64,000 nt of DNA from Thermodesulfobacteriota bacterium (GTDB lineage: Bacteria; Desulfobacterota; QYQD01), in assembly GCA_031082315.1 (NCBI GenBank), contig JAVHLC010000011.1, positions 35,117-99,116 of the forward strand. The letters run 5' to 3'. Of this stretch, positions 1 through 61,378 are shown in pieces. A model generated the notes under the pieces. It was not told the DNA's origin. It saw only the letters and a list, made by a program, of their open reading frames with translations, and ran no database searches. A program made the translations under genes and the position numbers. Each line of letters starts with the position of its first letter. Position 1 is the first letter of the stretch.

Positions 1-635
1 GGGAGGATATATACCGTGAAGCGCGGCGGAAAGGGGTGCTGTTCGTCCGCTACGGCCTTGAGAATAAGCCGCTGGTTGAGGAAGTCGATGGCGAACTCAG
101 GGTTACGGTGACTGACCATGTACTGGGGAGGCCGCTGGTCATCAGGCCTGATTTCATCACCCTGATGACCGCCATCATTCCGTCCGGCCACAAAGAACTG
201 GCGAAAGCCTTCAAGGTCCCTACGAACGCGGAGGGATTCTTCTTCGAAGCGCACATGAAGCTGCGCCCGGTGGACTTTGTCACTGAAGGCCTGTTCGTCT
301 GCGGACTGGCACACTACCCTAAACCCATAGATGAAACCATTGCTCAGGCCCAGGCTGTAGCCGCTAGGGCCATGACTATTTTGTCCAAAGATGAGACCAT
401 TGCGGGCGGGATGGTGGCCGAGGTGGACCAGGAGAACTGCGCGGCCTGCCTGACCTGTGTCCGTACCTGTCCTTACCACGTTCCGTTTATTAACCGCCAC
501 GGAGTGTCCGAGATCGATGCTGCGAAATGCCAGGGATGTGGATGTTGCGCATCTGAATGCCCTGCGGGCGCGATAACGCTGCACCACTTTACGGATGAGG
601 AGATTGCGGCGAAGGTGGGGGCCCTGTTTAAATAA
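1..635 (+). CDS. hdrA: Heterodisulfide reductase subunit A-like protein, C-terminal fragment (5' end outside window)
   Basis: Frame is open from the window edge (EDIYREARRKGVLFVRY...). Two C-terminal ferredoxin motifs (CAACLTCVRTCP, CQGCGCCASECP). mvhD follows immediately. Confidence 0.75.
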   Translation, partial: EDIYREARRKGVLFVRYGLENKPLVEEVDGELRVTVTDHVLGRPLVIRPDFITLMTAIIPSGHKELAKAFKVPTNAEGFFFEAHMKLRPVDFVTEGLFVCGLAHYPKPIDETIAQAQAVAARAMTILSKDETIAGGMVAEVDQENCAACLTCVRTCPYHVPFINRHGVSEIDAAKCQGCGCCASECPAGAITLHHFTDEEIAAKVGALFK

Positions 636-677
636 TAAGGGTGGGGAAAAAGGACTAAATAATGAGAGCGCACAGCC

Positions 678-1118
678 ATGTCTGAGAACTTTGAACCACG
701 CATTGTAGCCTTTTGTTGCCAGTATTGTTCGTATTCGGCGGCAGATCTGGCAGGCTCTATGAGGCTTTCCTATCCACCCAATGTAAAGGTGGTGCTCGTC
801 CCGTGTACAGGCCGTGTCGATCCGCTCCATATCCTGAGAACGATTGAGAATGGTGCGGATGGCGTCTGCGTGGCTGGTTGCCTGGAAGGAGACTGTCATT
901 TTCTGGAGGGGAATTTCAAGGCCAAGAAGCGGGTGGCCTACGTGCAGAGAATTCTGAGCGAGGCCGGCGTAGAGGGCGCGCGGGTGAGGATGTTCAATAT
1001 CGCGGCCTCGGATGGGCCGGGTTTTGCTGAGGCCGCCAGGATAATGACCGAGACGATCAGGGCGTTGGGTCCAAACCCCCTGTCGATAAAGACCGAGAAG
1101 ATGTCTGAGGAGTTATAG
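678..1118 (+). CDS. mvhD: Methyl-viologen-reducing hydrogenase delta subunit-like protein
   Basis: IVAFCCQYCSY...LVPCTGRVD...CVAGCLEGDCHF is the MvhD/FlpD Cys pattern. Sits between hdrA and metV. Confidence 0.85.
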   Translation: MSENFEPRIVAFCCQYCSYSAADLAGSMRLSYPPNVKVVLVPCTGRVDPLHILRTIENGADGVCVAGCLEGDCHFLEGNFKAKKRVAYVQRILSEAGVEGARVRMFNIAASDGPGFAEAARIMTETIRALGPNPLSIKTEKMSEEL

Positions 1119-1126
1119 GTGTCATA

Positions 1127-1801
1127 ATGATTATCGCAGAACGGAAGCCGATTAAAGAATTGCTTGAAATGCTTGCCGGGCACGACCGGGTTCTCCTCGT
1201 GGGATGTAAGGGGTGCGTGACCGTGTGTAATGCGGGCGGGGTAAGAGAGGTCGGTGTACTGGCCTCAGCCCTCCGTATCGCCCGGAGGCGGCAGGGGAGA
1301 CCGATCGAGATTGATGAAATGACGCTGGACCGGCAGTGTGAGCCGGAGTTTATCTCCTGGCTGGAGGAACCCTTGCGGGAAAATGGCTATACAGCGGTTA
1401 TGTCTGCGGCCTGCAGTGTAGGACCGCAATACATAGCGGAACGGTTTGACAATGTGGCCGTTATGCCGGCATTGAACACCAAGTTCATCGGGGGAACGCT
1501 TGAGCACGGGGTCTGGGCCGAGTTTTGCCGGGCGTGTGGTAATTGCGGGATACACAATTTTGGAGGCCTATGCCCTATTACCCGGTGTTCCAAGGGACTC
1601 TTACATGGTCCGTGCGCGGGATCGTCGGGGGGTAAATGTGAGGTGCGCCCGGAAGTAGATTGCATATGGCATCTCATTTATACGCGCATGAAGAATCTCG
1701 GCCAGGTCGATAAACTCAAGGCCCTGAAACCGGCCAAGAACTGGTCCGGCTACTGGAGCGGTGGCGTGCGCAGGGTTGTGCGGGAGGACTTAACTCTATG
1801 A
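1127..1801 (+). CDS. metV: Methylenetetrahydrofolate reductase C-terminal-domain protein (MetV-like, Cys-rich)
   Basis: Cys-rich motifs (GCKGCVTVC, CRACGNCG, CPITRC). 4-nt overlap with metF start. Confidence 0.7.
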   Translation: MIIAERKPIKELLEMLAGHDRVLLVGCKGCVTVCNAGGVREVGVLASALRIARRRQGRPIEIDEMTLDRQCEPEFISWLEEPLRENGYTAVMSAACSVGPQYIAERFDNVAVMPALNTKFIGGTLEHGVWAEFCRACGNCGIHNFGGLCPITRCSKGLLHGPCAGSSGGKCEVRPEVDCIWHLIYTRMKNLGQVDKLKALKPAKNWSGYWSGGVRRVVREDLTL

Positions 1802-2724
1802 AGGCAGGAAGCAACCTCGAAAGGCTCTTGAAAAGCGGTCAATTTACGATCACTGCCGAATTTGTCCCGCCCGCGACGGGAGACCGGGGGTTAATTGAAC
1901 GGCAGGCCCGTTACTTTAAAGGTCATGTGGATGCCGTAAGCGTGGCGGACAATATGGGCGCCGTGGTAGGTACGGCGAGCTGTGCGGTATCCAAGGCGCT
2001 CCTGGACCTGGGTCTGGAACCGATCATGTCTTTGGTCACACGTGACCGGAACCGCATCGCCCTGCAAAGTGACCTCTTGGGGGCCTCGCTCCTGGGCATT
2101 CGAAATGTCTTCTGTACCACCGGCGACCATCAGAAATTTGGAGATCACCCTGAGGCCCTGAACGTCTATGATATCGACTCCGTGCAACTCGTGAATGCGG
2201 TGAGAGGACTGTCCGACAGCGGGAAACTGCTGGGAGGGGCGGTGTGTGATAAGGCGGGGTCATTCTTCGTAGGCGCGGCAGCCAACCCGTTCGGTGATCC
2301 GGCCGATCTTATGATCCTCCGCCTGGGTCAAAAAGTGAGGGCTGGAGCGGATTTTATTCAGTCCCAACCTGTTTTTGATCTGGAGAAGTTCGGGCATTGG
2401 GTGCAACTGGCGAGAGAAGAAGGCCTTATTGAAAAGTGCTTCATCCTGGCTACGGTAATGCCGCTTCGGTCGGCGCGTGAAGCGCGGGCAATCAATGAGA
2501 GAAGACGGGGTATCGAGGTCTCTAAAGAAATTATTGCCCGGCTGGAAGGCGTGCCGGAGCCGGAGCAGGCGCGGGAAGGGCTTAGAATCTGTGCCGAGCA
2601 GATTCAGGCCCTCAAAGAGATGAAAGGTGTTCAGGGTGTTCATATCATGAGTGCGGGGCGGGAAGAGGTGATCCCTGAACTAATTAAGGAAAGCGGCCTG
2701 GAGACGGCACGAGCAAGGGACTAG
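1798..2724 (+). CDS. metF: 5,10-methylenetetrahydrofolate reductase
   Basis: 308 aa with a MetF-like TIM-barrel sequence (FTITAEFVPP..., VSVADN, GADFIQSQPVFD). Translationally coupled to metV. Confidence 0.85.
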   Translation: MKAGSNLERLLKSGQFTITAEFVPPATGDRGLIERQARYFKGHVDAVSVADNMGAVVGTASCAVSKALLDLGLEPIMSLVTRDRNRIALQSDLLGASLLGIRNVFCTTGDHQKFGDHPEALNVYDIDSVQLVNAVRGLSDSGKLLGGAVCDKAGSFFVGAAANPFGDPADLMILRLGQKVRAGADFIQSQPVFDLEKFGHWVQLAREEGLIEKCFILATVMPLRSAREARAINERRRGIEVSKEIIARLEGVPEPEQAREGLRICAEQIQALKEMKGVQGVHIMSAGREEVIPELIKESGLETARARD

Positions 2725-2765
2725 CCGTACCGGGAACATTTAGCCGGCGGGAGGATTTTTACCGG

Positions 2766-4016
2766 ATGTCTCAACCAATTGTCATAGGAAAACGTAAATC
2801 CAGATTCAAGGAACTGGCGCAGGCCGCGATCCCTGGAGGGGGCAACCTGGATCTCTGCCTCACTTGCAGTTCTTGTGTCAATGGGTGCCCGGCCTCAGGC
2901 ATCAGCGATATGGACCCCAGGAAGTTCCTGAGGATGGTGCTCCTCGGACTGGACGAAGAGGTTCTCCAGACTCCCTGGATCTGGTGGTGTTCTATGTGCC
3001 AGAGGTGCAGGCGTGCCTGTCCCATGGGCGTGGATATTGGAGCGTTGGTGTTCATGGCCCGTCAGCAATGGTCGCGGGAAAATACACCAAAAGGGATTCA
3101 GAAGTCATGTGACTTGCACCTCGAGTTTGGTAACAGCACGGGAATTCGCAGGGAAGATTGGGTTTCACTTTGTGCGGAGCTGGCTGAGGAGACCAGACAG
3201 CAGGAAGAGGACTGGAAGGATTTGCCGGCTCCCATGGATAAAAAAGGGGCTGGGTATTATCTCAACCAGAACGCCAAAGAACCCACTGTCGAACCTGAGG
3301 AGATGATACCCTTGTGGAAGATACTCCATGAGGTGGGCATTGATTGGACGTATTCATCCGAACAATGGGATGCCGTGAATTACTGTATGTTTTCCGGGGA
3401 TGACCGGGACTGGGAGGCGGTAGTCAGAAGACAGTCCGAAATAGTGAACGACCTGGGCTGTAAGACGCTTATAAATACCGAGTGAGGCCACGCATTTTAC
3501 GCGGTCCAGGCTGGACTGCAGAGATTCAATATCCCTCATAACTGGAAGTTTGAGAGTATAATCACCCTGTACGCCGCATGGATCCGTGATGGCAGTCTCG
3601 TGGTAGATCCGTCATGGAATAAAGAAGGCATTAAAGTGACCTGCCAGGACCCCTGTAACCTGGTACGAAAGGGTCTGGGTGACAGCGTGGCGGATGACCT
3701 GCGTTTTGTCATCAAACATGTGGCAGGCGAAGAGAATTTTGTGGATATGTGGCCGAACAAATCCAATAATTACTGCTGCGGCGGCGGCGGCGGTTATCTC
3801 CAGTCAGGATTTGTCGAGAAACGCCGGGCCTTTGGAAGAATTAAATTTGACCAGATACAGGCCACCGGCGCTGATATCGTGGTGACGCCCTGTCATAATT
3901 GCCGCTCGCAGATAACGGATATAGGCCAGGTGTACGGCGGCAAGTATCAGACTGTACATCTGTGGAGCCTGATCGTTAAGGCGATGGTCCGCAAGTCCAC
4001 GGCAACACCCGGCTAA
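2766..4016 (+). CDS. Fused HdrC/HdrB-like (GlpC-like) Fe-S oxidoreductase, predicted selenoprotein with in-frame UGA at 3483-3485
   Basis: ORFs 2766-3485 and 3600-4016 share a frame, and no other stop lies between 3486 and 3599. N-terminal part has 2x[4Fe-4S] motifs (CLTCSSCVNGCP, CSMCQRCRRACP). C-terminal part has a CCG domain (YCCGGGGG, TPCHNCRSQ). The UGA sits in INTE-U-GHAFYA. Confidence 0.65.
3501..3519 (+). promoter_or_regulatory. Candidate bacterial SECIS hairpin
   Basis: GCGGUCC-AGGCU-GGACUGC: 7-bp stem including one G.U pair. G-containing apical loop lies about 25 nt downstream of the UGA. Confidence 0.45.
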
Positions 4017-14872: not shown

Positions 14873-17851
14873 CTACCAGCGCAGGGGTCTTTGCCAGGCC
14901 TCTTTGAGCCGGGCTATGGACGCCGATACCACTATATCACCTCTCAGGCCGTTACAAATCAGGATCGGCTCTTCAGTTACCCGGCCTATGCGGGCCAGGG
15001 TTGTACCCTGCATAACAGCGCTAAACGCCTCTTCTCTGTCCGGGTGAACAGTCACCACAAAACGGCTCTGGGATTCGGAAAAGAGGAGGAAGTCATCGCG
15101 TTCTATGTCCTCTTTGGGTACAGAGGCCAGGTCGATATTCATACCCAGCCCGCCGGCGAAGGCCGTTTCCGCCAGGGCCACCCCTAATCCCCCGTCCGAA
15201 CAGTCATGGCAGGAGGCCACCAGTCCTTCACAGATGGCCCCGGTCAGCCTCTCATAGCCAGCCCTTGCGGCTGCGGCATCCACTACAGGGACATTGTTTC
15301 CTATGTAACCGTGCCGGGCGAAGTATTCCGAGCCGCCCAGCTCCGGTTTAGTGAGACCTATGACATATACCAGGTCGCCCGGCTCCTTGGCGTCCATGGT
15401 TTGCACCCGCCGGACATCGTCGATCTTTCCCAAGACAGAAAAGAGCACCGTGGGCGGGATGGATATCTTTGTATTCTCCACGATGTAGTCGTTTTTCATG
15501 CTGTCCTTGCCGGAGATGCACGGCACGCCATAGGCCGTGGTGTAATCGTACAGGGCCTGATTGGCGCGGACCAGTTGGGCCAGTTTGTAGCGGCCGTCCG
15601 GCGTCTTTTCGGATTGAATGGGATCACACCAGCAGAAGTTATCCAGTCCGGCCAGATGCCTGATATCTCCGCCGGAGGCTATGGCGTTGCGTATGGCCTC
15701 ATCAATGGCACAGGCCATCATGTGATAGGTGTCTATATCACTGTAGCGGGGACAGATGCCGTTGGCTACCACAATCCCTTCAAAAGACGAGAGCACCGGC
15801 CTGATGACCGCGGCATCGCTGGGGCCGTCTCCATTTACACCGGAAAGGGGCTTGATAACGCCTCCGCCCTGTACCTCATGATCGTACTGCCGGACCACGT
15901 ATTCTTTACTGCATATATTCAGGCGGCCGAGCATGGTCTCCAGGGTGGAAGTGAGGTCTTCTACCTCCGGAATGTCCGGTTCAGGGTATTTAGGAGGCGT
16001 CCAGACGGCCACCATTTCCATCTGGGGCAGCCCGTTGTGGACAAATTCCATATTCAGGCAGGCTACTGTCTTTCCCTCATAGGTGACCAGGAACTCCCCG
16101 TTGTCATTAAAGCGGCCCAGAACCGTGGCCTCCACGCCCATTTTTTTGGCCAGGGCCAGGAAGGCGTCTTTATTATCCGGGGGCACGGCCAGGGTCATGC
16201 GCTCCTGGGCCTCGGAGAGAAATATCTCCCAGGGGTTAAGGCCGGCATACTTGAGCGGGGCTTTTTCCAGTTGAAGCTCAAAGCCTCCACAGTCCTGGGC
16301 CATTTCGCCTACGGAGGAGGAAAGGCCGCCGGCCCCGTTATCGGTTATGCTCCGGTAAAGACACAGGTCGCGGGCTACCAGGAGAAAATCCGTCATCTTT
16401 TTCTGGGTGATGGGGTCTCCGATCTGCACCGCCGTGGCCGGTGATCCTTCATGCAATTCTTCGGAAGAAAACGTGGCCCCATGTATGCCGTCTTTACCGA
16501 TGCGGCCGCCGGTCATGACGATAAAATCTCCCGGCTCGGCTTTTTTGATATGCGAAGGCCCGCCGCATACCACGGCCGGCATGATGCCGCCTGTCCCGCA
16601 GAATACCAGCGGTTTACCCAGATAGCGTTCATCAAATACGAGGCAGCCGTTTACGGTAGGGATGCCGCTTTTGTTCCCGCCGTGTTCCACGCCTTCCCGC
16701 ACGCCCTCAAAGATGCGTTTGGGGTGGAGGAGCCGGGGGGGCAGGGGCTTATCGTAATCCGGGGGCGCGAAGCAGAAGACATCGGTATTGAAGATGAGTT
16801 TGGCCCCTTTGCCGGTGCCGAAAGGGTCGCGGTTAACCCCGACTATGCCGGTAAGGGCCCCGCCGTAAGGATCAAGGGCCGAGGGACTGTTGTGGGTCTC
16901 AACTTTAAGGGCCAGGCTCCATTCCTCGTTAAATTTGATTACGCCGGCGTTATCACGGAAGACGGAAAGGCAGAAGTCGCTTTCCCCTTTGGCCTCACGG
17001 ATCAGTTGAGTAGATGCCTTTATGTAGGTGTCATAGAGACTGTTTATGGTGACAGTCCGGCCGGTTTCGTCCGTATAGTGGATGCGGCCGTTAAATATCT
17101 TATGCTTGCAGTGCTCGGACCAGCTCTGGGCCAGGCATTCCAGCTCCACATCCGTGACCTTTTCGCCCAGACCGAGACTCCGGCGATGGGCCAGCGCCTC
17201 AGGAGAGGTGATGTAATCCCGAATGACCTTCATTTCAGCAAGGTTAAGGGCCAGTACCCGCTCGCGGCTTATGGCCAGAAGTCTTTCATCACTCACCGCA
17301 AGATCAATCTCCTCAACGGTGGGACGTGTATCGGCGACTACCCTGGGAACAAGAGGCGGCATCCCCGTGGTCTTATCCCATTCAGATCGATCCTTGATGC
17401 GGAAACTCTGGATAAGGGTGTTGGCCAGGAGGCCGGTGGCTATGCGTTCTACGTCTTTCAGGGACAGATCACCGGCGAGGGCATACTGTGTAGAGGTATA
17501 AACCCCTTCGCCCCTGTTCAATTTCCGTCCGATGGCCAGTTCAAGGGATTCCCGGGCTGTTTTCCCCTCATTATCCGTCACACCCGGCCTGAACCCCACC
17601 TCGATAAGCCAATCAAATGCATCGGCCAAGGGGCGGTCAATGGAATACTCCTGGCTGATAGAGTCACAAAAGAGCTGGCCGGCCAATTCTTCTACCAGAG
17701 TGGAGTCAACCCCGGCATCAATCGTAAATACCTTGATAGTCCGCACGGAACGGACGGGGAGGTGGATATCCTCGTTGATCCTCTTTCGGATCTTCTCCCC
17801 AAAGGCATCACGCAGTGATTTTTTGAGCATTACTTCGATGCGGTGAATCAT
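14873..17851 (-). CDS. purL: Phosphoribosylformylglycinamidine synthase, fused PurS-PurL
   Basis: 992 aa. PurS-like N-terminus followed by duplicated AIR-synthase-like PurL domains. Confidence 0.9.
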   Translation of the reverse strand: MIHRIEVMLKKSLRDAFGEKIRKRINEDIHLPVRSVRTIKVFTIDAGVDSTLVEELAGQLFCDSISQEYSIDRPLADAFDWLIEVGFRPGVTDNEGKTARESLELAIGRKLNRGEGVYTSTQYALAGDLSLKDVERIATGLLANTLIQSFRIKDRSEWDKTTGMPPLVPRVVADTRPTVEEIDLAVSDERLLAISRERVLALNLAEMKVIRDYITSPEALAHRRSLGLGEKVTDVELECLAQSWSEHCKHKIFNGRIHYTDETGRTVTINSLYDTYIKASTQLIREAKGESDFCLSVFRDNAGVIKFNEEWSLALKVETHNSPSALDPYGGALTGIVGVNRDPFGTGKGAKLIFNTDVFCFAPPDYDKPLPPRLLHPKRIFEGVREGVEHGGNKSGIPTVNGCLVFDERYLGKPLVFCGTGGIMPAVVCGGPSHIKKAEPGDFIVMTGGRIGKDGIHGATFSSEELHEGSPATAVQIGDPITQKKMTDFLLVARDLCLYRSITDNGAGGLSSSVGEMAQDCGGFELQLEKAPLKYAGLNPWEIFLSEAQERMTLAVPPDNKDAFLALAKKMGVEATVLGRFNDNGEFLVTYEGKTVACLNMEFVHNGLPQMEMVAVWTPPKYPEPDIPEVEDLTSTLETMLGRLNICSKEYVVRQYDHEVQGGGVIKPLSGVNGDGPSDAAVIRPVLSSFEGIVVANGICPRYSDIDTYHMMACAIDEAIRNAIASGGDIRHLAGLDNFCWCDPIQSEKTPDGRYKLAQLVRANQALYDYTTAYGVPCISGKDSMKNDYIVENTKISIPPTVLFSVLGKIDDVRRVQTMDAKEPGDLVYVIGLTKPELGGSEYFARHGYIGNNVPVVDAAAARAGYERLTGAICEGLVASCHDCSDGGLGVALAETAFAGGLGMNIDLASVPKEDIERDDFLLFSESQSRFVVTVHPDREEAFSAVMQGTTLARIGRVTEEPILICNGLRGDIVVSASIARLKEAWQRPLRW

Positions 17852-28210: not shown

Positions 28211-28744
28211 GCGGGACGTTCATGCAGAACGTGCTTGACGAATTGTGAATAAGCAGGACATCCTCTTGAGGCGGACGGCAGTTACTCTATCTCCCGAACC
28301 CCGGAGCTTCGTCACGTTGTGCTGACTTGCCCGGAGACTGGGCCTGGTATGCCGTTTACTCGCCACGTCCTGTGGCTCGCCCTTCGGGCCAGCAAAGCTG
28401 TTCAAGATCGTTCATCCTGACGATTTTGTCTGTTCGTCGGCTCATAGCTTTGCGCTCCGGGTTACCGCTCCCTACGGTCGCTCTCGCCGTTGGCTCGTGG
28501 TCTCCGCTGCGCTTCGAACCCTTCGACGGTCTCTCACGATTCCGCCCTTGCCTTCGGCTGGTACTTCTGCTAACGTATCACTAACTAGGCAGGGTTCACC
28601 CTGTTAAATTCCCCCCAGGGAACCCTATTTAACAGGGTGAACGTACAGGGGGGACTTACACCCCTTAAGCTCACGCCCATGCCGGGCGTACACAACTGCG
28701 TTCACGCGACCTCGTGACCTCGGCGCGTGACCCACATGTTATTA
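28211..28744 (+). other. attC-type site B, interrupted by an intron-like element
   Basis: Without 28218-28693 it reads GCGGGAC-AACTGC-GTTCACGCG-ACCTCGTGACCTCGG-CGCGTGA-CCCACAT-GTTATTA. Confidence 0.6.
28218..28693 (-). mobile_element. ORF-less group II (class C-like) intron-like RNA, copy B
   Basis: About 90% identical to copy A with the same ends. Lacks one ~23-nt hairpin. Shows at least one compensatory U-A to C-G change in a small stem. Confidence 0.6.
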
Positions 28745-29566: not shown

Positions 29567-31075
29567 ATGAAGGAGGACAAAAAGAGGTTAACCACAGCTT
29601 TCGGTATCCCAGTGGCTGACGACCAGAACAGTCTCACCGCAGGTGAACGTGGGCCTATACTCATGCAGGATATTCATTTGCTGGAGAAACTGGCACACTT
29701 CGACCGTGAGCGTATTCCCGAACGAGTAGTGCACGCAAAAGGAGCGGGGGCGCACGGCTATTTTGAGGTTACTACTGATGTGACCAGGTACACCAAAGCG
29801 AGATTTCTTTCGAAAGTGGGCAAGAGTACCGAGGTCTTCGTACGGTTTTCCACTGTTGGTGGTGAGCGGGGTTCGGCCGATGCTGCACGAGATCCACGCG
29901 GCTTTGCAGTCAAATTCTACACGGAGGAAGGCAATTATGACTTAGTGGGGAACAATACACCCGTATTCTTTATCCGCGATCCGCTCAAGTTTCCTGATTT
30001 CATCCACACCCAAAAGCGGATCCCTGCGAACAATCTACCAGATCCGGACATGTTTTGGGACTTTTTATCCCTGACACCCGAATCCATTCATCAAGTTACA
30101 ATCCTTTTCTCCGACAGGGGAACACCAGGCGCCTATCGGCACATGAACGGCTATAGCAGCCACACGTTCAAGTGGTACAATGACAAGGGGGAATACTTCT
30201 GGGTACAGTACCATTTCAAAACGGATCAGGGCATCAAGAATCTGACCCGGGAGGAAGCGAAGAGAATGTGCGGCGAGGATCCGAATCACGCCACCCGTGA
30301 CCTGTATGAAGCTATCGAACGGGGAGACTATCCTTCCTGGACTCTTGAGATGCAGATTCTGACACCGGAGAAGGCCAAGGATTTTCCTTGGGATATCTTT
30401 GACATCACCAAAGTCTGGCCGCATGGAGAAGTCCCTCCTATCAAGATTGGAAAGCTGGTTCTGAACCGCAACCCGGTTAATTATTTTGCAGAAGTGGAAC
30501 AGGCGGCTTTCTGCCCGGGAAACGTGGTTCCCGGTATCGCCATCTCACCGGATAAGATGCTGCAAGCAAGGGTTTTTTCCTACCATGATACCCACCTTCA
30601 CAGACTTGGCCCCAACTATCACCTGATTCCAGTCAATGCGCCCAAATGTGCCCAGGAAAATAGTTACCAACGTGACGGATTCATGCGTGTTGACACCAAC
30701 GGAGGTGGTGGACCCAACTACTGGCCCAATAGCTTCGGTGGACCAGAGCCGGACCTGACGGCAGGCGAGCCTCCTTTTGAGGTTTCCGGCCAGGCTGGTC
30801 GTTACCCATTCACCTATCCAAATGACGACTTTGTGCAGGCTGGTACCCTTTACCGTAAAGTCATGTCAGACAAAGATCGGGAGCACCTTACCGGGAACAT
30901 TGTGGATCACCTGGCTAAGGCGCAGAAACGCATCCAAATGCGCCAAACCGCCTTGTTCTATAAGGCAGACGAGGAGTACGGCCGACGCGTAGCCGAAGGA
31001 TTAGGTCTCGATGTGAATGAAATCAAGCGATTGGCGGATATGTCTCATGAAGAAAGAGCGAAGGCTACAGAATAG
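29567..31075 (+). CDS. Monofunctional heme catalase
   Basis: [24 protein letters not shown] and [14 protein letters not shown] motifs. 502 aa. Confidence 0.95.
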
Positions 31076-56545: not shown

Positions 56546-56692
56546 GTTTTCATCCGGAAAACCAAGTTTTCCGGATGGAGCAGTCAGCACTCAGCTATCA
56601 GCATTCAGCTTAACATAATGTTTGTCCTACTCTTTTGCTGACAGCTGATGGCTGAAAGCGTGAAGCCGGAAACAGTAGTTTCCGGATGAAAA
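56546..56692. repeat. Repeat family R3 copy
   Basis: GTTTTCATCCGGAAAACC...CAGCACTCAGCTATCAGCATTCAGC...GCTGACAGCTGATGGCTGAAAGCG...CCGGAAACAGTAGTTTCCGGATGAAAAC. Confidence 0.8.
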
Positions 56693-56727
56693 CTGGATTG
56701 ATTTTTAGCAGGGCAGGACGGGACGAA

Positions 56728-58509
56728 ATGGCTGGTTATTGGAAGAAGCTTCTTAGGATAAATCTTACCAGTGGGAAAACCGAGACAGAAGAGATACCTG
56801 AGGAGATTATCACCAAATACCTTGGCGCCAAGGGTATCGGAGCCTACTACTTTATAAAAGGCCTTAAAAAGGGCATCGACCCCCTTTCTCCTGAAAACAG
56901 GATTGTCCTGGCTACAGGGCCTTTTCAGGGTACGGAAATTCTATCCAGTGGCCGTTTCGCGGTTATTACCAAGTCTCCCCTTACCGGCATATTTCTGGAT
57001 AGCTATAGCGGGGGGCTGTTTGGCCCCGGTCTCAAATACTGCGGTTTTGATCTGGCGATTATCGAAGGCAAAACAAAAAAGCCTGTATATATCTGCATAA
57101 CCAATGGGCGGGCCCAGATAAAGGATGCTGCGCATCTATGGGGAAGGACCACGGCTGAAACAGAAAAGATCATAAGGTCAGCGGAAGGCGAGGATACGAA
57201 GGTAGTTTCCATAGGCGTGGCCGGAGAAAACGGGGCGCTTTTCTCCTGTCTGATCAGTGACAGGCGCCGCGCCGCGGGCCGGGGGGGAGCAGGGGCGGTC
57301 TTTGGGGCGAAGAACCTTAAGGCCGTAGCGGTAAACGGTACGCTGGCTATCCCGGTTCATGATGCTAAAAAGATAAAGGAATTAAATCGAAGGGCTGTGC
57401 AGGCCGTGGCACAGAGGCGTAAAGATAACGCCGGCCTTTATCTTTACGGTACCTCATCAGTATTGGAATATTCCCACAGGAAAGACCGCTTACCGGTCCT
57501 CAATTTTCAAAAAGGTGAGTGGGAATACTATGAGGGACTGGATGGGGAGACCATCCATCGGGAGAATAAGGTTAAATTCAACCCCTGTTGTCCCTGTCCG
57601 ATTGCCTGTGGCGGTATTCTTACCTCTCAAGGTAAAGACCGGCCGGAGTATGAGACCCTGGCCATGCTGGGGGCAAACTGCGGCCTGAAAAGATATGAGA
57701 CCGTGATTAAGGCCAATGAGCTATGTGATCTTTACGGCCTGGATACGATTTCGACCGGCAATGTCATCGCCTTTGCCATGGAATGTTCGGAAAAAGGGAT
57801 AATAAAAGAAAAGATCAAGTTCGGCGATGAAACGAGGCTTTTGTCGTTGATTGAGGAGATTGCTTATCGCAGGGGCATAGGCGGGCAGTTGGGCTTGGGC
57901 GCCAAAAGATTAGCCGGGATGTGGGGACACGGTTCTCGTGATTTTGCCATGCATGTGAAAGGTCTTGAGATGCCGGCCTGGAATACACGGGGACAGTTAG
58001 GCCAGGGGCTGGCCTATATGACCGCTGATATCGGGGCCAGCCACTTACGCGATGGCCTTGCGGAGCATAGTCCACCTAATAAACCGGCCATGGAGGTTGT
58101 CAAGGAGCTGGTGGAGGCCCAAAACGAGACTACCGCCAGAGATAACTACATAATATGTGCTTTTGCCCTGTACACTGTCTCACACGAGATGTGCCTTGAT
58201 TATTTTAAGGCGGCAACGGGTTTGGGATTAAATAAAGAGAAGATTCAGGAGATAGGCAATCGGATATTCACCCTTATTCGAAGCGTTAATTGCGGGGAGG
58301 GGATAACGCGCAAGGACGATAGCCTCCCGGCCAGGGCCATGAATGAACCCCTGCCTTCTGGAGTGGCCAAAGGCTGTAAGGCGTTTGTTAGTGAGGAAGA
58401 TAAAGAGCAGTGTCTGAATAGATACTATGAACTGCGCGACTGGGACAATAATGGTATTCCCAAAAAGGAGACACTTGAGAAATTAGGGATAGAGAGACTG
58501 ACCCGGTGA
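56728..58509 (+). CDS. aor: Aldehyde:ferredoxin oxidoreductase family (tungstopterin) enzyme
   Basis: AOR N-terminal and central domains with a Cys cluster region (CCPCPIACGG). Start set at MAGYWKKLLRINLT because the tracked ATG lies inside repeat R3. Confidence 0.8.
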   Translation: MAGYWKKLLRINLTSGKTETEEIPEEIITKYLGAKGIGAYYFIKGLKKGIDPLSPENRIVLATGPFQGTEILSSGRFAVITKSPLTGIFLDSYSGGLFGPGLKYCGFDLAIIEGKTKKPVYICITNGRAQIKDAAHLWGRTTAETEKIIRSAEGEDTKVVSIGVAGENGALFSCLISDRRRAAGRGGAGAVFGAKNLKAVAVNGTLAIPVHDAKKIKELNRRAVQAVAQRRKDNAGLYLYGTSSVLEYSHRKDRLPVLNFQKGEWEYYEGLDGETIHRENKVKFNPCCPCPIACGGILTSQGKDRPEYETLAMLGANCGLKRYETVIKANELCDLYGLDTISTGNVIAFAMECSEKGIIKEKIKFGDETRLLSLIEEIAYRRGIGGQLGLGAKRLAGMWGHGSRDFAMHVKGLEMPAWNTRGQLGQGLAYMTADIGASHLRDGLAEHSPPNKPAMEVVKELVEAQNETTARDNYIICAFALYTVSHEMCLDYFKAATGLGLNKEKIQEIGNRIFTLIRSVNCGEGITRKDDSLPARAMNEPLPSGVAKGCKAFVSEEDKEQCLNRYYELRDWDNNGIPKKETLEKLGIERLTR

Positions 58510-58511
58510 GA

Positions 58512-59252
58512 TCACGATATTTTTTTAAAGAACTTTTTTCGCCTGATTCCTGCCAGACCAACCAAACCGGAGCCGACGAGAAGCATCGTAGCGGGTTCAG
58601 GAACCGGAGGATTTCCACCACCTGTATCTCCATCTCCGATCCAGCCACTTCCATCAGTGTCTATGCCTGGGGAATTTGGATCATCAATGCCCTGGACATG
58701 GGCTGCTGATCTATAGCTACCGTTGCCGCCTCCTGGAGCACTATAAAAATTGAAGGATGAAGCGGTAAGTCCTGGGATACCTGAAATTACGTAAACCGAA
58801 TAATCATCCTCACCGAATCGAGTAGATACGCTTGCTGTATCAAAAGAGAATTTGATATCAAAATACCCGTCTCCATCTGCCTTAAAGGCGTTACTTCCGG
58901 TCAAAAACGAGGTTGCCTGGACGCTAGAGTAATATGTATCGTAAGTAAAGGTTAAGGAAGTGACAGCAAGATTGGGATCTAGATTGAGATACCAATCACT
59001 TACAAATTCTGATCCAGTCAGATTCGTAGCCTCCATCTTCAATACAACCGTACCATCAGTGTTATCTATAAAAGTCGCAGTGAGCCATGGAGTGAATGGG
59101 GAAGAAGGAGCCTGTGCGCCGGAGAACTCGGTATCAAGTCCAATCGTCAATGGCAGCGCCAGGACAGGTATCGGAGATAAAGCTAAACTCACCAGCGCAA
59201 CGGGAACCATCCATACGAATATAAAAAAACTTTTTAAAGTTTTCATCCTCAT
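58512..59252 (-). CDS. PEP-CTERM sorting-domain protein
   Basis: Signal peptide. C-terminal VPEPATMLLVGSGLVGLAGIRRKK. Confidence 0.75.
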   Translation of the reverse strand: MRMKTLKSFFIFVWMVPVALVSLALSPIPVLALPLTIGLDTEFSGAQAPSSPFTPWLTATFIDNTDGTVVLKMEATNLTGSEFVSDWYLNLDPNLAVTSLTFTYDTYYSSVQATSFLTGSNAFKADGDGYFDIKFSFDTASVSTRFGEDDYSVYVISGIPGLTASSFNFYSAPGGGNGSYRSAAHVQGIDDPNSPGIDTDGSGWIGDGDTGGGNPPVPEPATMLLVGSGLVGLAGIRRKKFFKKIS

Positions 59253-59299
59253 TTCTCTCCGTCAATATAAGCCCTTTATGATAGCTTATTCCAAGAAAA

Positions 59300-59314
59300 G
59301 CAAATCTTATGCCA
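59300..59314 (-). promoter_or_regulatory. Sigma-54 (-24/-12) promoter candidate
   Basis: Minus strand reads TGGCAT-AAGAT-TTGCT, with correct GG/GC spacing. It ends 48 nt upstream of the ATG at 59252. Confidence 0.6.
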
Positions 59315-59461
59315 TAGTTTTAACTTATTGTTTTTATAACATATGCTTAAATGAGTCTTTATAAAAAGTGGAAAAAGTTTACCACTTAAGGAGAAAAGTT
59401 TTTCTTCTTTTAGTAATTTATTTTCACCTTGTTTATGTACTGTGAGGTTTAACTTAGTAAA

Positions 59462-60280
59462 TTAGGAGCGATGAGTTGTCCATTTTCTTATTACGAGGCC
59501 AATCAAGCCGCTGGCTAAGAGAAGTATGGCTGAAGGCTCGGGGATCGTTACATCTGGAGGATCGAGAGGTTGGATAAACGTGGCGTATCCCACTCCCCAC
59601 GGGTTACCAAGTTCAAGAAATGGTTTCCATACAAGGGTTTCATCTTCGTTCCAGGTAGTATACAGTCCATAGCAAAAATTATCCGGGTCGTATCCCAATA
59701 CCGGTACGAAGTGGTCCGTACCCCCGTTGCCGTCAGTATCGACCAGGAACATCAGAGGCCGTCCGGCATCGATTTCAGCAATCAAACTGTCCCATGTGGA
59801 ATTGCTATTATATGGCTCGTACCAGGCATCAAAAGTATATCCACGATAGTCGGCGAATCCGGTAAAAGCGTCGTCAGCGAAAGACTGGTAACTCCAACCG
59901 TAGCCAAGAGGATCTTCCGAGGTATGAAAGAAGTCAGCGACACTGGTGTCGGGCGGTTCAGGTAAATCGGAATTATCCGGCGTCGGATCATACTTTTCAT
60001 TGTGTGCCGGACTGGAAATATGGTCTTGGACATTCGCGGTTAGACAGACGCTATCCCATCCGCTGGCATCAAATAAATTGTCATAGCCGTGGAGGTCCCA
60101 GTAGCCGATAACAGAGGCGGCGGCAGTAGGCCCACAGCCGTGGTACCAATTGTAGGCCGGGACATTTGAGAGAGTCACCGGTAAGGCAGCAGCAGGAGGT
60201 ATATTCATCAGCCATAATGCCGCTGTTTCTACCAGAAAGAAGCTTATCGTTATAAGTAAAAACTTACGAATGAATAACAT
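59462..60280 (-). CDS. PEP-CTERM protein with C39-like/papain-like cysteine peptidase domain
   Basis: NWYHGCGPTAAASVIGYWD motif. C-terminal IPEPSAILLLASGLIGLVIRKW. Confidence 0.65.
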   Translation of the reverse strand: MLFIRKFLLITISFFLVETAALWLMNIPPAAALPVTLSNVPAYNWYHGCGPTAAASVIGYWDLHGYDNLFDASGWDSVCLTANVQDHISSPAHNEKYDPTPDNSDLPEPPDTSVADFFHTSEDPLGYGWSYQSFADDAFTGFADYRGYTFDAWYEPYNSNSTWDSLIAEIDAGRPLMFLVDTDGNGGTDHFVPVLGYDPDNFCYGLYTTWNEDETLVWKPFLELGNPWGVGYATFIQPLDPPDVTIPEPSAILLLASGLIGLVIRKWTTHRS

Positions 60281-60530
60281 CCTTCCCTCCCTGGATTGGA
60301 TACCTCTATTATATCGGTTTAGACGAGAAGTTTGTTAATAAAGGAGGTATCCCTTCCTGTGACGATTGGGATATCTTATAGCACAGTGGGTTTGTGGATG
60401 CAAGAATTGATCGACGGCATCATAAGGGTTTGAAAGATGCGATGGAAGATATGTGACTAGGCCCGCGGCTGAGATGAAAAAACCTTACTTAGAACCACAG
60501 GATAGCAGCGTCAAATATTATATTGGCCCC

Positions 60531-61292
60531 CTATTTCTTTTTAGAAAATTTTTTTCTGCCGAAAGCGGCCAAGCCTATCAGCCCGGAGCCCAAAAGGGCC
60601 ATGGTAGCCGGTTCAGGAACCGGAGTGCCACCTCCCGTAAACCTTTCATAGACTACATCGTTGGAACAATTCACGGTCCAGCTGATAATGAAGTCATCTG
60701 AACCAAGGTATATTGGGTAATCTGAGAAGTCAAAAAAAGAGGTGACTTCAGTGCCTGTTGCCCCGGGGATTTGCCAACCTGAAAAATGGGTGGTTTGTGC
60801 AGTAGTGGAGGTGCCTACATTAATCGCAATTGGGTGACTGTCCCTGATATAGTAACCAGACCAAGTACCTGTATTGTCATTACCCGAAAGTATATAGGAT
60901 GAGTCATTATTACCCTTTATCGAGGAAAGATTAATAGAGAAAAGACCGTAATCGCCTGCTGTTTTTTGCCCATTTGTCTTCACCAGATAGTTCCAGGTAT
61001 TATCCGCTCCAATATCAATAAAAAGGTCACTCGGTTTCAACACATTCCAAATACTCAGATAATTATCTGCCTTATAATTAAAGCAAATGTTTTCAAGATA
61101 ACCATTACTTGATATAGATACCTTACCTCCGGTAAAACTTGGTATTCCAATGGTGTCCTTATAGTCATCAGCCGTTCCATTGTTCCATGTAGGCCAATAG
61201 TAAGAAGTATCGCTAAAGGGAATCTCTATCGCAACAGCCTGTGACGAGACAAAAATAATCAATAAAACAAGCAAAGCCAACCGCTTTTTCAT
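60531..61292 (-). CDS. PEP-CTERM sorting-domain protein
   Basis: Start at MKKRLALLVLL with RBS AGGAGA. C-terminal VPEPATMALLGSGLIGLAAFGRKK. Confidence 0.75.
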   Translation of the reverse strand: MKKRLALLVLLIIFVSSQAVAIEIPFSDTSYYWPTWNNGTADDYKDTIGIPSFTGGKVSISSNGYLENICFNYKADNYLSIWNVLKPSDLFIDIGADNTWNYLVKTNGQKTAGDYGLFSINLSSIKGNNDSSYILSGNDNTGTWSGYYIRDSHPIAINVGTSTTAQTTHFSGWQIPGATGTEVTSFFDFSDYPIYLGSDDFIISWTVNCSNDVVYERFTGGGTPVPEPATMALLGSGLIGLAAFGRKKFSKKK

Positions 61293-61378
61293 ACTGTTCT
61301 CCTGAGATGTAATGCAATGCCCACATGCCATATGGCAAGGGTAATTGTTACTAGCACTTTTTGCTCAAACAAAAAATA

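Follow-up and report, generated by a model that had tools for sequence, protein, structure and literature searches.

The DNA considered here is a stretch of 64,000 nt from a Thermodesulfobacteriota bacterium (GenBank assembly GCA_031082315.1, contig JAVHLC010000011.1, positions 35,117 to 99,116 of the forward strand), and this whole stretch is called the window. Near its beginning, on the + strand, lies a reading frame (2766..4016) which is single apart from one TGA and has full-length homologues, and which very probably represents one selenoprotein gene with an iron-sulfur (Fe-S) product resembling HdrD, i.e., a fusion of the HdrC and HdrB subunits of heterodisulfide reductase. The original prediction, made from the sequence alone, had joined two open reading frames (ORFs), 2766-3485 and 3600-4016, across this TGA. 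A check of the ORF list showed that the two share one frame, that the TGA at 3483-3485 is the sole stop from ATG 2766 to TAA 4014-4016, and that the 114 nt at 3486-3599 are open. The frame 2766-4016 comprises 416 sense codons including UGA as codon 240, ends with this TAA, and is preceded by a Shine-Dalgarno-like GGAGG (2750..2754, + strand) read from the sequence 11 nt ahead of ATG 2766. The product obtained by reading through the UGA was confirmed as ...LINTE-U-GHAFYAVQAG..., in its wider surroundings ...DLGCKTLINTE-U-GHAFYAVQAGLQRF..., and Pfam recovered in it the Fer4 dicluster and CCG domains that had been announced. We hold with high confidence that 2766-4016 is one gene, that it encodes a 416-residue cytoplasmic HdrD-like Fe-S protein, and that the UGA at 3483-3485 stands for selenocysteine (Sec, residue U240).

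The assignment of the in-frame UGA (3483..3485, + strand, motif NTE-U-GH) to Sec is based on the Cys found there in homologues and on the TGA shared by relatives. A protein search with the read-through product gave 1161 proteins at E <= 1e-10, and the best 120 of these 1161 were aligned. They were nearly all full length (405-440 aa), with E-values down to 1e-243. The column under the TGA was occupied by Cys in 119/119 full-length homologues, within an invariant E-C-G-H, so a Cys, which had been thought plausible at the UGA as a redox residue, is indeed found there, and U240 stands in for it. The sole sequence of the 120 that was not full length, P0029, has 239 aa and is 98% identical to the N-terminal ORF of the window. 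It represents a cluster of 20 sequences (>=90% identity) from different metagenome-assembled genomes (MAGs) and read sets, all called at 239 aa except two shorter fragments, which matches a TGA at the same place. Contigs L001 and L002 of this cluster were checked at the DNA level and agree with the window in the TGA, in the CCG "gene" downstream of it and in the neighbouring genes. Homologues with a natural end at this position had been named as what would speak against read-through; the only ones ending here are calls truncated by this very TGA, and homology continues in frame. The supposition that a standard gene caller would split the gene was borne out by the records of these relatives, which consist of the 239-aa call and a separate CCG gene.

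The TGA was also searched for at the DNA level. The collection genome_contigs (one genome per species) was scanned with the pattern GGNTGY-N12-AAYACNGARTGAGGNCAY, corresponding to G-C-x4-N-T-E-TGA-G-H, for which about 4 chance matches are expected in 596 Gb on both strands, assuming equal base frequencies. The same in-frame TGA was present in at least 120 genome stretches. The matches listed belong mostly to Desulfobacterales, Desulfobacteraceae, Desulfobulbaceae, Desulfovibrionaceae and Desulfarculaceae, and also include Thermodesulfatator, a SAR324 MAG and a Dissulfurispiraceae MAG; isolates among the matches listed are Desulfoluna limicola ASN36, Desulfoluna spongiiphila AA1, Desulfopila aestuarii DSM 18488 and Desulfopila sp. 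IMCC35006. As far as their contigs extend, these Sec-form stretches have an open frame before and after the TGA and continue with GH[EVIA]x[FY][AS]V.... A stop within 38 codons after the TGA was seen in only 1 of about 120 Sec forms, and both halves of the window protein were found by tblastn in 121 of 122 Sec-form loci. The frame past the TGA is kept open and homologous across many relatives, and the TGA therefore constitutes an old conserved feature of a large clade and not a lesion.

Selection on the gene points in the same direction. The window and L001 differ at 56 of the 1251 nt of the gene, and 43 of these 56 differences are at codon position 3. Third positions account for 19 of 25 differences upstream of the TGA and for 24 of 31 downstream. 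This bias is the same on both sides of the TGA, and thus both parts are translated in this frame.

Additional observations were made on the Sec forms. At least two sequence subtypes exist after the Sec (GHELFAVRAGL... and GHVTFSVLAGL...), and some genomes carry two Sec-form paralogues, namely L015 and L063 (contig CAJXSL010000002.1) and L058 and L070 (MAG QZJS01). Also, protein P0023 (EMS81429.1) of Desulfotignum phosphitoxidans is named 'oxidoreductase, selenocysteine-containing' in its source, yet its sequence in the collection contains no U and shows Cys in the column of the Sec. This would be explained by a name taken over from a Sec paralogue or by a replacement of U with C in the collection; with Cys at this column, P0023 was unusable as a Sec reference.

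A hairpin with the properties of a bacterial Sec insertion sequence (SECIS) is located at 3501..3519 (+ strand), as judged by folding and comparison. Its stem is formed by 3501-3508 and 3512-3519, and its loop by G3509-G3510-C3511. The 7-bp hairpin with an AGGCU loop described in the original prediction is real; the energy model prefers 8 bp and a GGC triloop closed by A3508-U3512, which is the same element. The hairpin begins at the 16th nt after the UGA, i.e., with 15 nt between, and this spacing is inside the bacterial SECIS range, as had been claimed. The bacterial SECIS model given in a recent review (PMC13188914) comprises an apical loop of 3-9 nt with G in its first two positions (N1-G-[G|U]-N-N2), an upper stem of 4-16 bp, a UGA-to-loop distance of 16-37 nt and a minimum free energy <= -7.5 kcal/mol. 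The window hairpin agrees with it on all four counts (loop GGC, A-GGC-U; stem 8 bp; UGA-to-loop 23 nt; -12.5 kcal/mol), and the pentaloop reading gives a stem of 7 bp and a UGA-to-loop distance of 22 nt. The 27-nt local fold at -12.5 kcal/mol has z = -2.9, with 5/200 shuffles as good. No Rfam SECIS match was obtained, either at the gathering threshold over the whole window or at E<=10 on 3400-3650; we do not count this against Sec, as a curated model for hairpins in coding regions may not exist.

The 120 unique Sec-form sequences share the hairpin in identical register (nt 19-37, the U of UGA being nt 1), and 118 of these 120 form 7-8 of its 8 pairs. In an alignment of 121 Sec forms (A1), standard pairs fill 95.5% of the cells, compensatory two-sided changes occur in 5 of the 8 pairs, and the covariation score was reached by 0/500 column shuffles. 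When the 3' partner was slid by 1-3 nt, pairing fell to only 15-43%. The closing pair of the Sec forms is G-C in 72, U-A in 38, G-U in 6 and A-U in 3 sequences; its two covarying sides are the middle base of an Arg/Leu/Gln codon (CGG/CUG/CAG) and the wobble base of the codon after it. Every Sec form has G as its first loop base, followed by G or U. Within the stem, third-codon positions are near-frozen, with an entropy of 0-0.35 bits vs 1.30 outside.

For comparison, metagenome_contigs was scanned with the same pattern, TGY replacing TGA, which gave 113 unique Cys-form sequences. These mostly form 2-4 of the 8 pairs, and their local folding energy is -4.2+-2.6 kcal/mol vs -11.4+-1.7 kcal/mol in the Sec forms (Mann-Whitney p ~1e-35). 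The closest Cys homologue, P0001 (82% identity), is without the hairpin and reads GUC UAU GCC GGU CUG in this region (-4.4 kcal/mol). Thus, what had been proposed as a SECIS-like hairpin turned out to be an element that is conserved, covarying, specific to TGA forms and absent from Cys forms. It leaves a trace in the protein: the residue 8 positions past Sec or Cys is Trp (V/M/L-W) in most Cys forms inspected and Arg, Leu or Gln in Sec forms, and the comparison of window codons 247-249 (3504-3512) with loci L003-L242 indicates that the SECIS constrains the protein sequence.

The gene of P0001, in a Latescibacterota MAG, has immediately downstream a gene for a 258-aa protein with AIRS/AIRS_C domains (L243, 5850-6626, - strand). 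Judged by eye, this protein might be a SelD relative. This gene call may be incomplete, as its start is preceded by stops.

The cis-elements in the window and the relatives lead us to consider it very likely that Sec is decoded in this organism. According to the mechanism we propose, the hairpin at 3501-3519, which lies inside the coding sequence and presents a G-G-N apical loop, would be bound by SelB.GTP.Sec-tRNA(Sec). SelB would then hand Sec to the UGA instead of release factor 2, and the ribosome would proceed through GHAFYAVQAGLQ... into the canonical CCG domain. Several results weigh against this interpretation. A 63-nt fold has z = -1.4, with 20/200 shuffles as good, and the hairpin alone is thus weakly above chance; its significance comes from the comparison with relatives and not from the fold of the single sequence. 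No tRNA-Sec, selA, selB or selD is present within the 64-kb window, where ARAGORN found 0 tRNAs and none of about 40 ORFs gave a Pfam match to SelA, SelB or SelD. No other candidate selenoprotein gene was seen in the window. Lastly, as regards the structural role of U240, its placement on the N-terminal TEC-NGC of HdrB, in the first CCG domain, is a very weak local alignment (i-Evalue ~400).

Some candidates in the window were considered and set aside. As regards the Sec machinery, a 694-aa GTPase is EF-G and a 992-aa AIRS protein is PurL. Longer ORFs of the other strand overlap the TGA-joined ORF pairs that were checked (at 16442, 25141, 36477 and 62670); neither these pairs nor the remaining ones were taken as selenoprotein genes. 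Also, the frame of a gene for aldehyde:ferredoxin oxidoreductase, of the tungsten-enzyme family (56686-58509, + strand), stays open for 69 codons past its TGA; its Pfam match is complete before this stop, and the open frame was taken as chance. Genes for two PEP-CTERM proteins and a C39-like peptidase come after it at 58512-61331 (- strand).

The UGA could also be passed without selenium, either by near-cognate insertion of Trp or Cys or by Cys carried on tRNA(Sec) under selenium limitation, the hairpin only slowing termination. Other systems are known to read through UGA at a low level and to insert Cys at Sec codons under selenium shortage, and the Sec machinery was not seen in the 64-kb window. 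Nevertheless, we consider this explanation very improbable: the loop sequence, stem length and spacing of the hairpin are those of the SelB-type consensus, the Sec forms occur in lineages known as selenoprotein-rich, and there is no sign of a reassigned code. TGA is the ordinary stop of 13 of the 34 confident window genes, and reassignment of this codon is excluded for that reason.

Even less probable is a genuine stop at the TGA, with a 239-aa HdrC-like protein and a 138-aa CCG protein restarting at GTG 3600, in the manner of the HdrC and HdrB subunits. These are indeed separate subunits in methanogens, and automatic annotation of the relatives gives two genes. However, the break would fall inside a domain and at an invariant Cys, not at the boundary between HdrC and HdrB near residue 105. 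The 114-nt gap encodes GHAFYAVQAGLQRFNIPHNWKFESIITLYA..., which matches every full-length homologue residue for residue, and its substitutions are biased to third positions. No Shine-Dalgarno-like motif comparable to GGAGG lies upstream of GTG 3600, and no promoter-like or terminator-like site was seen in the gap at 3486-3599. A genuine stop would moreover leave the covarying, TGA-specific hairpin unexplained. A nonsense mutation in a pseudogene, or an assembly or sequencing error turning TGC/TGT into TGA, would need one base change only, but its likelihood is negligible in view of the same TGA in the independent assemblies L001 and L002, its implied presence in the 239-aa calls of the cluster, its occurrence in at least 120 other genome stretches, the purifying selection that persists downstream of it, and the SECIS that accompanies TGA and not TGY.

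The 416-residue selenoprotein read from the whole frame begins with an HdrC-like ferredoxin domain at residues 28-90 (2847..3035, + strand), identified with Pfam Fer4_17/Fer4_8/Fer4_9 and with HdrC chains in the PDB. It presents two CxxCxxCxxxC motifs (C31, C34, C37, C41; C75, C78, C81, C85), in which all eight Cys are invariant. Residues 9-105 match the HdrC chains of solved heterodisulfide reductases with E-values of 1e-14 to 1e-18 (4e-18 with the family profile). The score against the HdrC NCBIfam equivalog was 54 for a cut-off of 160, and this part is therefore a homologous domain, not an HdrC orthologue. A canonical CCG domain follows at residues 291-383 (3636..3914, + strand; Pfam PF02754, E 1e-11) and aligns to HdrB. 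Its set of Cys (C297, C337, C338, C376, C379) is complete, all five being invariant, and it is presumed to be the site of a non-cubane [4Fe-4S] cluster. In a profile search, residues 268-412 aligned to the second CCG domain of HdrB (E 1e-7), the only one of its domains that aligned.

Between the two domains, further invariant positions are C115, C207 and U240. They belong to a first CCG-like domain, which is degenerate and keeps 3 of the 5 Cys positions. From the work of Wagner and colleagues in 2017, the HdrB-type motif is reported to be CX(31-39)CCX(35-36)CXXC, occurring twice, each copy binding a non-cubane [4Fe-4S] cluster. The window protein does not show two complete CCG motifs: the second is complete, and the first consists only of C115, C207 and U240. 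Thus, no second canonical non-cubane cluster is possible. The spacing C207-x32-U240 parallels C337-x38-C376, and the sequence suggests that U240 would correspond to the first Cys of the CxxC in the degenerate first domain, opposite the intact non-cubane site. By analogy with HdrB and DsrK, Sec is probably situated at or beside a thiol/disulfide-reducing Fe-S active site.

The fold was approached through the Cys homologue P0001. Its AlphaFold2 model (mean predicted local distance difference test, pLDDT, 89.6) had as best structural match EtfD of Mycobacterium smegmatis (PDB 9OJN, TMq 0.68, E 2e-12), and then HdrB chains (TM ~0.45 on the query, 0.6 on the target) and LutA. EtfD, DsrK, HmcF and TmcB are likewise HdrD-like proteins with ferredoxin and CCG domains. 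Unlike the window protein, EtfD is membrane-anchored and has about 1000 aa. HmcF, TmcB and DsrK, known from sulfate reducers, are the nearest NCBIfam families, with scores far under the equivalog cut-offs (193 vs 750, 184 vs 735 and 135 vs 400); identity with any of them was rejected on these scores and on the lack of dsrMJOP, hmc or tmc neighbours in the window.

Similarly, the protein is not a true GlpC: TIGR03379 and NF008369 gave 47 and 57 bits for cut-offs of 280 and 278, on the ferredoxin part only, and neither glpA nor glpB is nearby. The label "HdrCB/GlpC-like" of the original prediction therefore holds for its first half, the HdrC-like and HdrB-like domains being present, and not for membership in the GlpC families, whose cut-offs are missed. 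The protein is HdrD-like, an HdrC+HdrB fusion, and "GlpC" is a historical label. As for the separate HdrC and HdrB of methanogens (PDB 5ODC, 8RVU, 7BKB), the N-terminal 105 residues of the window protein resemble HdrC and its C-terminal CCG domain resembles the second CCG domain of HdrB, but here the two are fused in one chain and the first CCG-like domain is degenerate. To our knowledge, these bacteria have no metabolism of coenzyme M and coenzyme B, and HdrB is not a selenoprotein.

Sec-containing GlpC-like and Hdr-related oxidoreductases had been said to be already described, and the literature confirms this (PMC1794560, PMC13188914, PMC2702500). "Fe-S oxidoreductase (GlpC)" is among 25 bacterial selenoprotein families listed by Zhang et al. 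(2006; PMC1794560), who reported the GlpC selenoprotein in Deltaproteobacteria beside hdrA and frhD, and a 2026 review lists the Fe-S oxidoreductase-like (GlpC) family with the Sec motif UGH (PMC13188914). The window gene shares with this family the U-G-H motif, the ferredoxin and CCG domains, the deltaproteobacterial/Desulfobacterota distribution, the neighbouring hdrA and FlpD-family (frhD/mvhD) genes and the fact that Cys homologues outnumber Sec forms. It differs in its surroundings: the published operon, glpC-hdrA-frhD-frhG-frhA, is hydrogenase-linked, whereas the window has metV and metF and is without frhG and frhA. The genome report of Desulfobacterium autotrophicum HRM2 mentions a Sec-containing hdrD4 and a complete sel machinery (PMC2702500). 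As portrayed there, hdrD4 resembles the window gene in that it encodes a soluble HdrC+HdrB fusion without membrane segments, contains Sec, and belongs to a sulfate reducer with the Wood-Ljungdahl pathway, and we infer that the two genes are of the same family. The window gene is thus a further member of a known selenoprotein family, which makes our result an annotation correction and not a discovery, the metF-linked context being a modest difference.

The genes upstream of the selenoprotein gene are all on the + strand. They are the 3' part of an hdrA-like gene that begins before the window (36..635; partial NCBIfam HdrA2/HdrA, Pfam Fer4), mvhD (FlpD) in its Cys form (678..1118; PF02662, E 5e-48, full length), a metV-like gene for a protein with the C-terminal domain of methylenetetrahydrofolate reductase (MTHFR) (1127..1801; PF12225, E 7e-34), and metF, encoding MTHFR (1798..2724; PF02219, E 9e-36). 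Thus, metF, metV, hdrA, mvhD and an HdrC/B module are co-located on one strand at 36-4016, with the Sec gene last. L001 and L002 likewise show the order hdrA-mvhD-metV-metF-hdrD. The hdrA-like gene of L001 encodes 1020 aa and follows glutamate-synthase-like genes (Glu_synthase, GXGXG; L001 1-7867). No hydrogenase subunits were found in the 64-kb window nor in the 7 kb of upstream sequence added by L001. MetF adjoins the Sec form in 32 of 122 loci (most <=8 kb) vs 1 of 120 Cys-form loci, an enrichment that is suggestive, the Cys controls coming from a taxonomically broader metagenome sample.

The arrangement of hdrA and glutamate-synthase-like genes in L001 recalls the 'HdrL' heterodisulfide-reductase/glutamate-synthase fusions of D. 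autotrophicum.

A MetFV-HdrABC-MvhD complex with methylene-tetrahydrofolate (methylene-THF) reductase activity has reportedly been described in Moorella thermoacetica by Mock and colleagues in 2014. The genes of the Moorella set are also found here, i.e., metF, metV, hdrA, mvhD and an HdrC+HdrB module. The differences are that HdrC and HdrB are fused and contain Sec, that HdrA is of a long form (1020 aa in L001), and that in L001 glutamate-synthase-like genes lie ahead. Because the Sec gene ends the hdrA-mvhD-metV-metF-hdrD cluster, it most likely encodes the HdrCB-equivalent subunit of a MetFV-HdrA-MvhD-type methylene-THF reductase complex of the Wood-Ljungdahl pathway.

A bolder hypothesis, which we regard as rather doubtful, is that in Wood-Ljungdahl Desulfobacterota the Sec form serves a selenium-dependent methylene-THF reductase/oxidase of the MetFV-HdrA-MvhD type as its dedicated subunit for thiol/disulfide chemistry, with a Sec/Cys redox site made up of U240, C115 and C207 that would face the single non-cubane cluster. 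If this were true, it would point to a co-substrate of disulfide type, e.g., DsrC or a low-molecular-weight disulfide, which might represent the second electron acceptor or donor that has long been sought for Hdr-linked MTHFRs.

The correction itself has a practical side. In GenBank, the gene of the closest relatives is split into a "4Fe-4S dicluster domain-containing protein" (239 aa) and a CCG protein, and the same split probably affects more than 100 species of Desulfobacterota. Also, the family now has a very clean SECIS alignment backed by covariation, in which the SECIS dictates a change in the protein from Trp to Arg, Leu or Gln. Our understanding of Sec decoding is unchanged by these data.

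Other features of the window were noted in passing. At 28276-28357 (- strand), Rfam matched the group II intron model D1-D4-3 with 35.1 bits (gathering score 32) over model positions 59-145 of 170; this may be an intron fragment, among short ORFs without a Pfam match. An ORF at 19049-20056 (+ strand) encodes both an IS200-like Y1 transposase domain and a DnaA C-terminal helix-turn-helix, and looks like a repetitive extragenic palindrome (REP)-associated or IS200-family element. A full-length haem catalase is encoded at 29567-31075 (+ strand; Pfam Catalase, E 8e-200), in a genome which otherwise looks like that of a strictly anaerobic Thermodesulfobacteriota of the Wood-Ljungdahl type.

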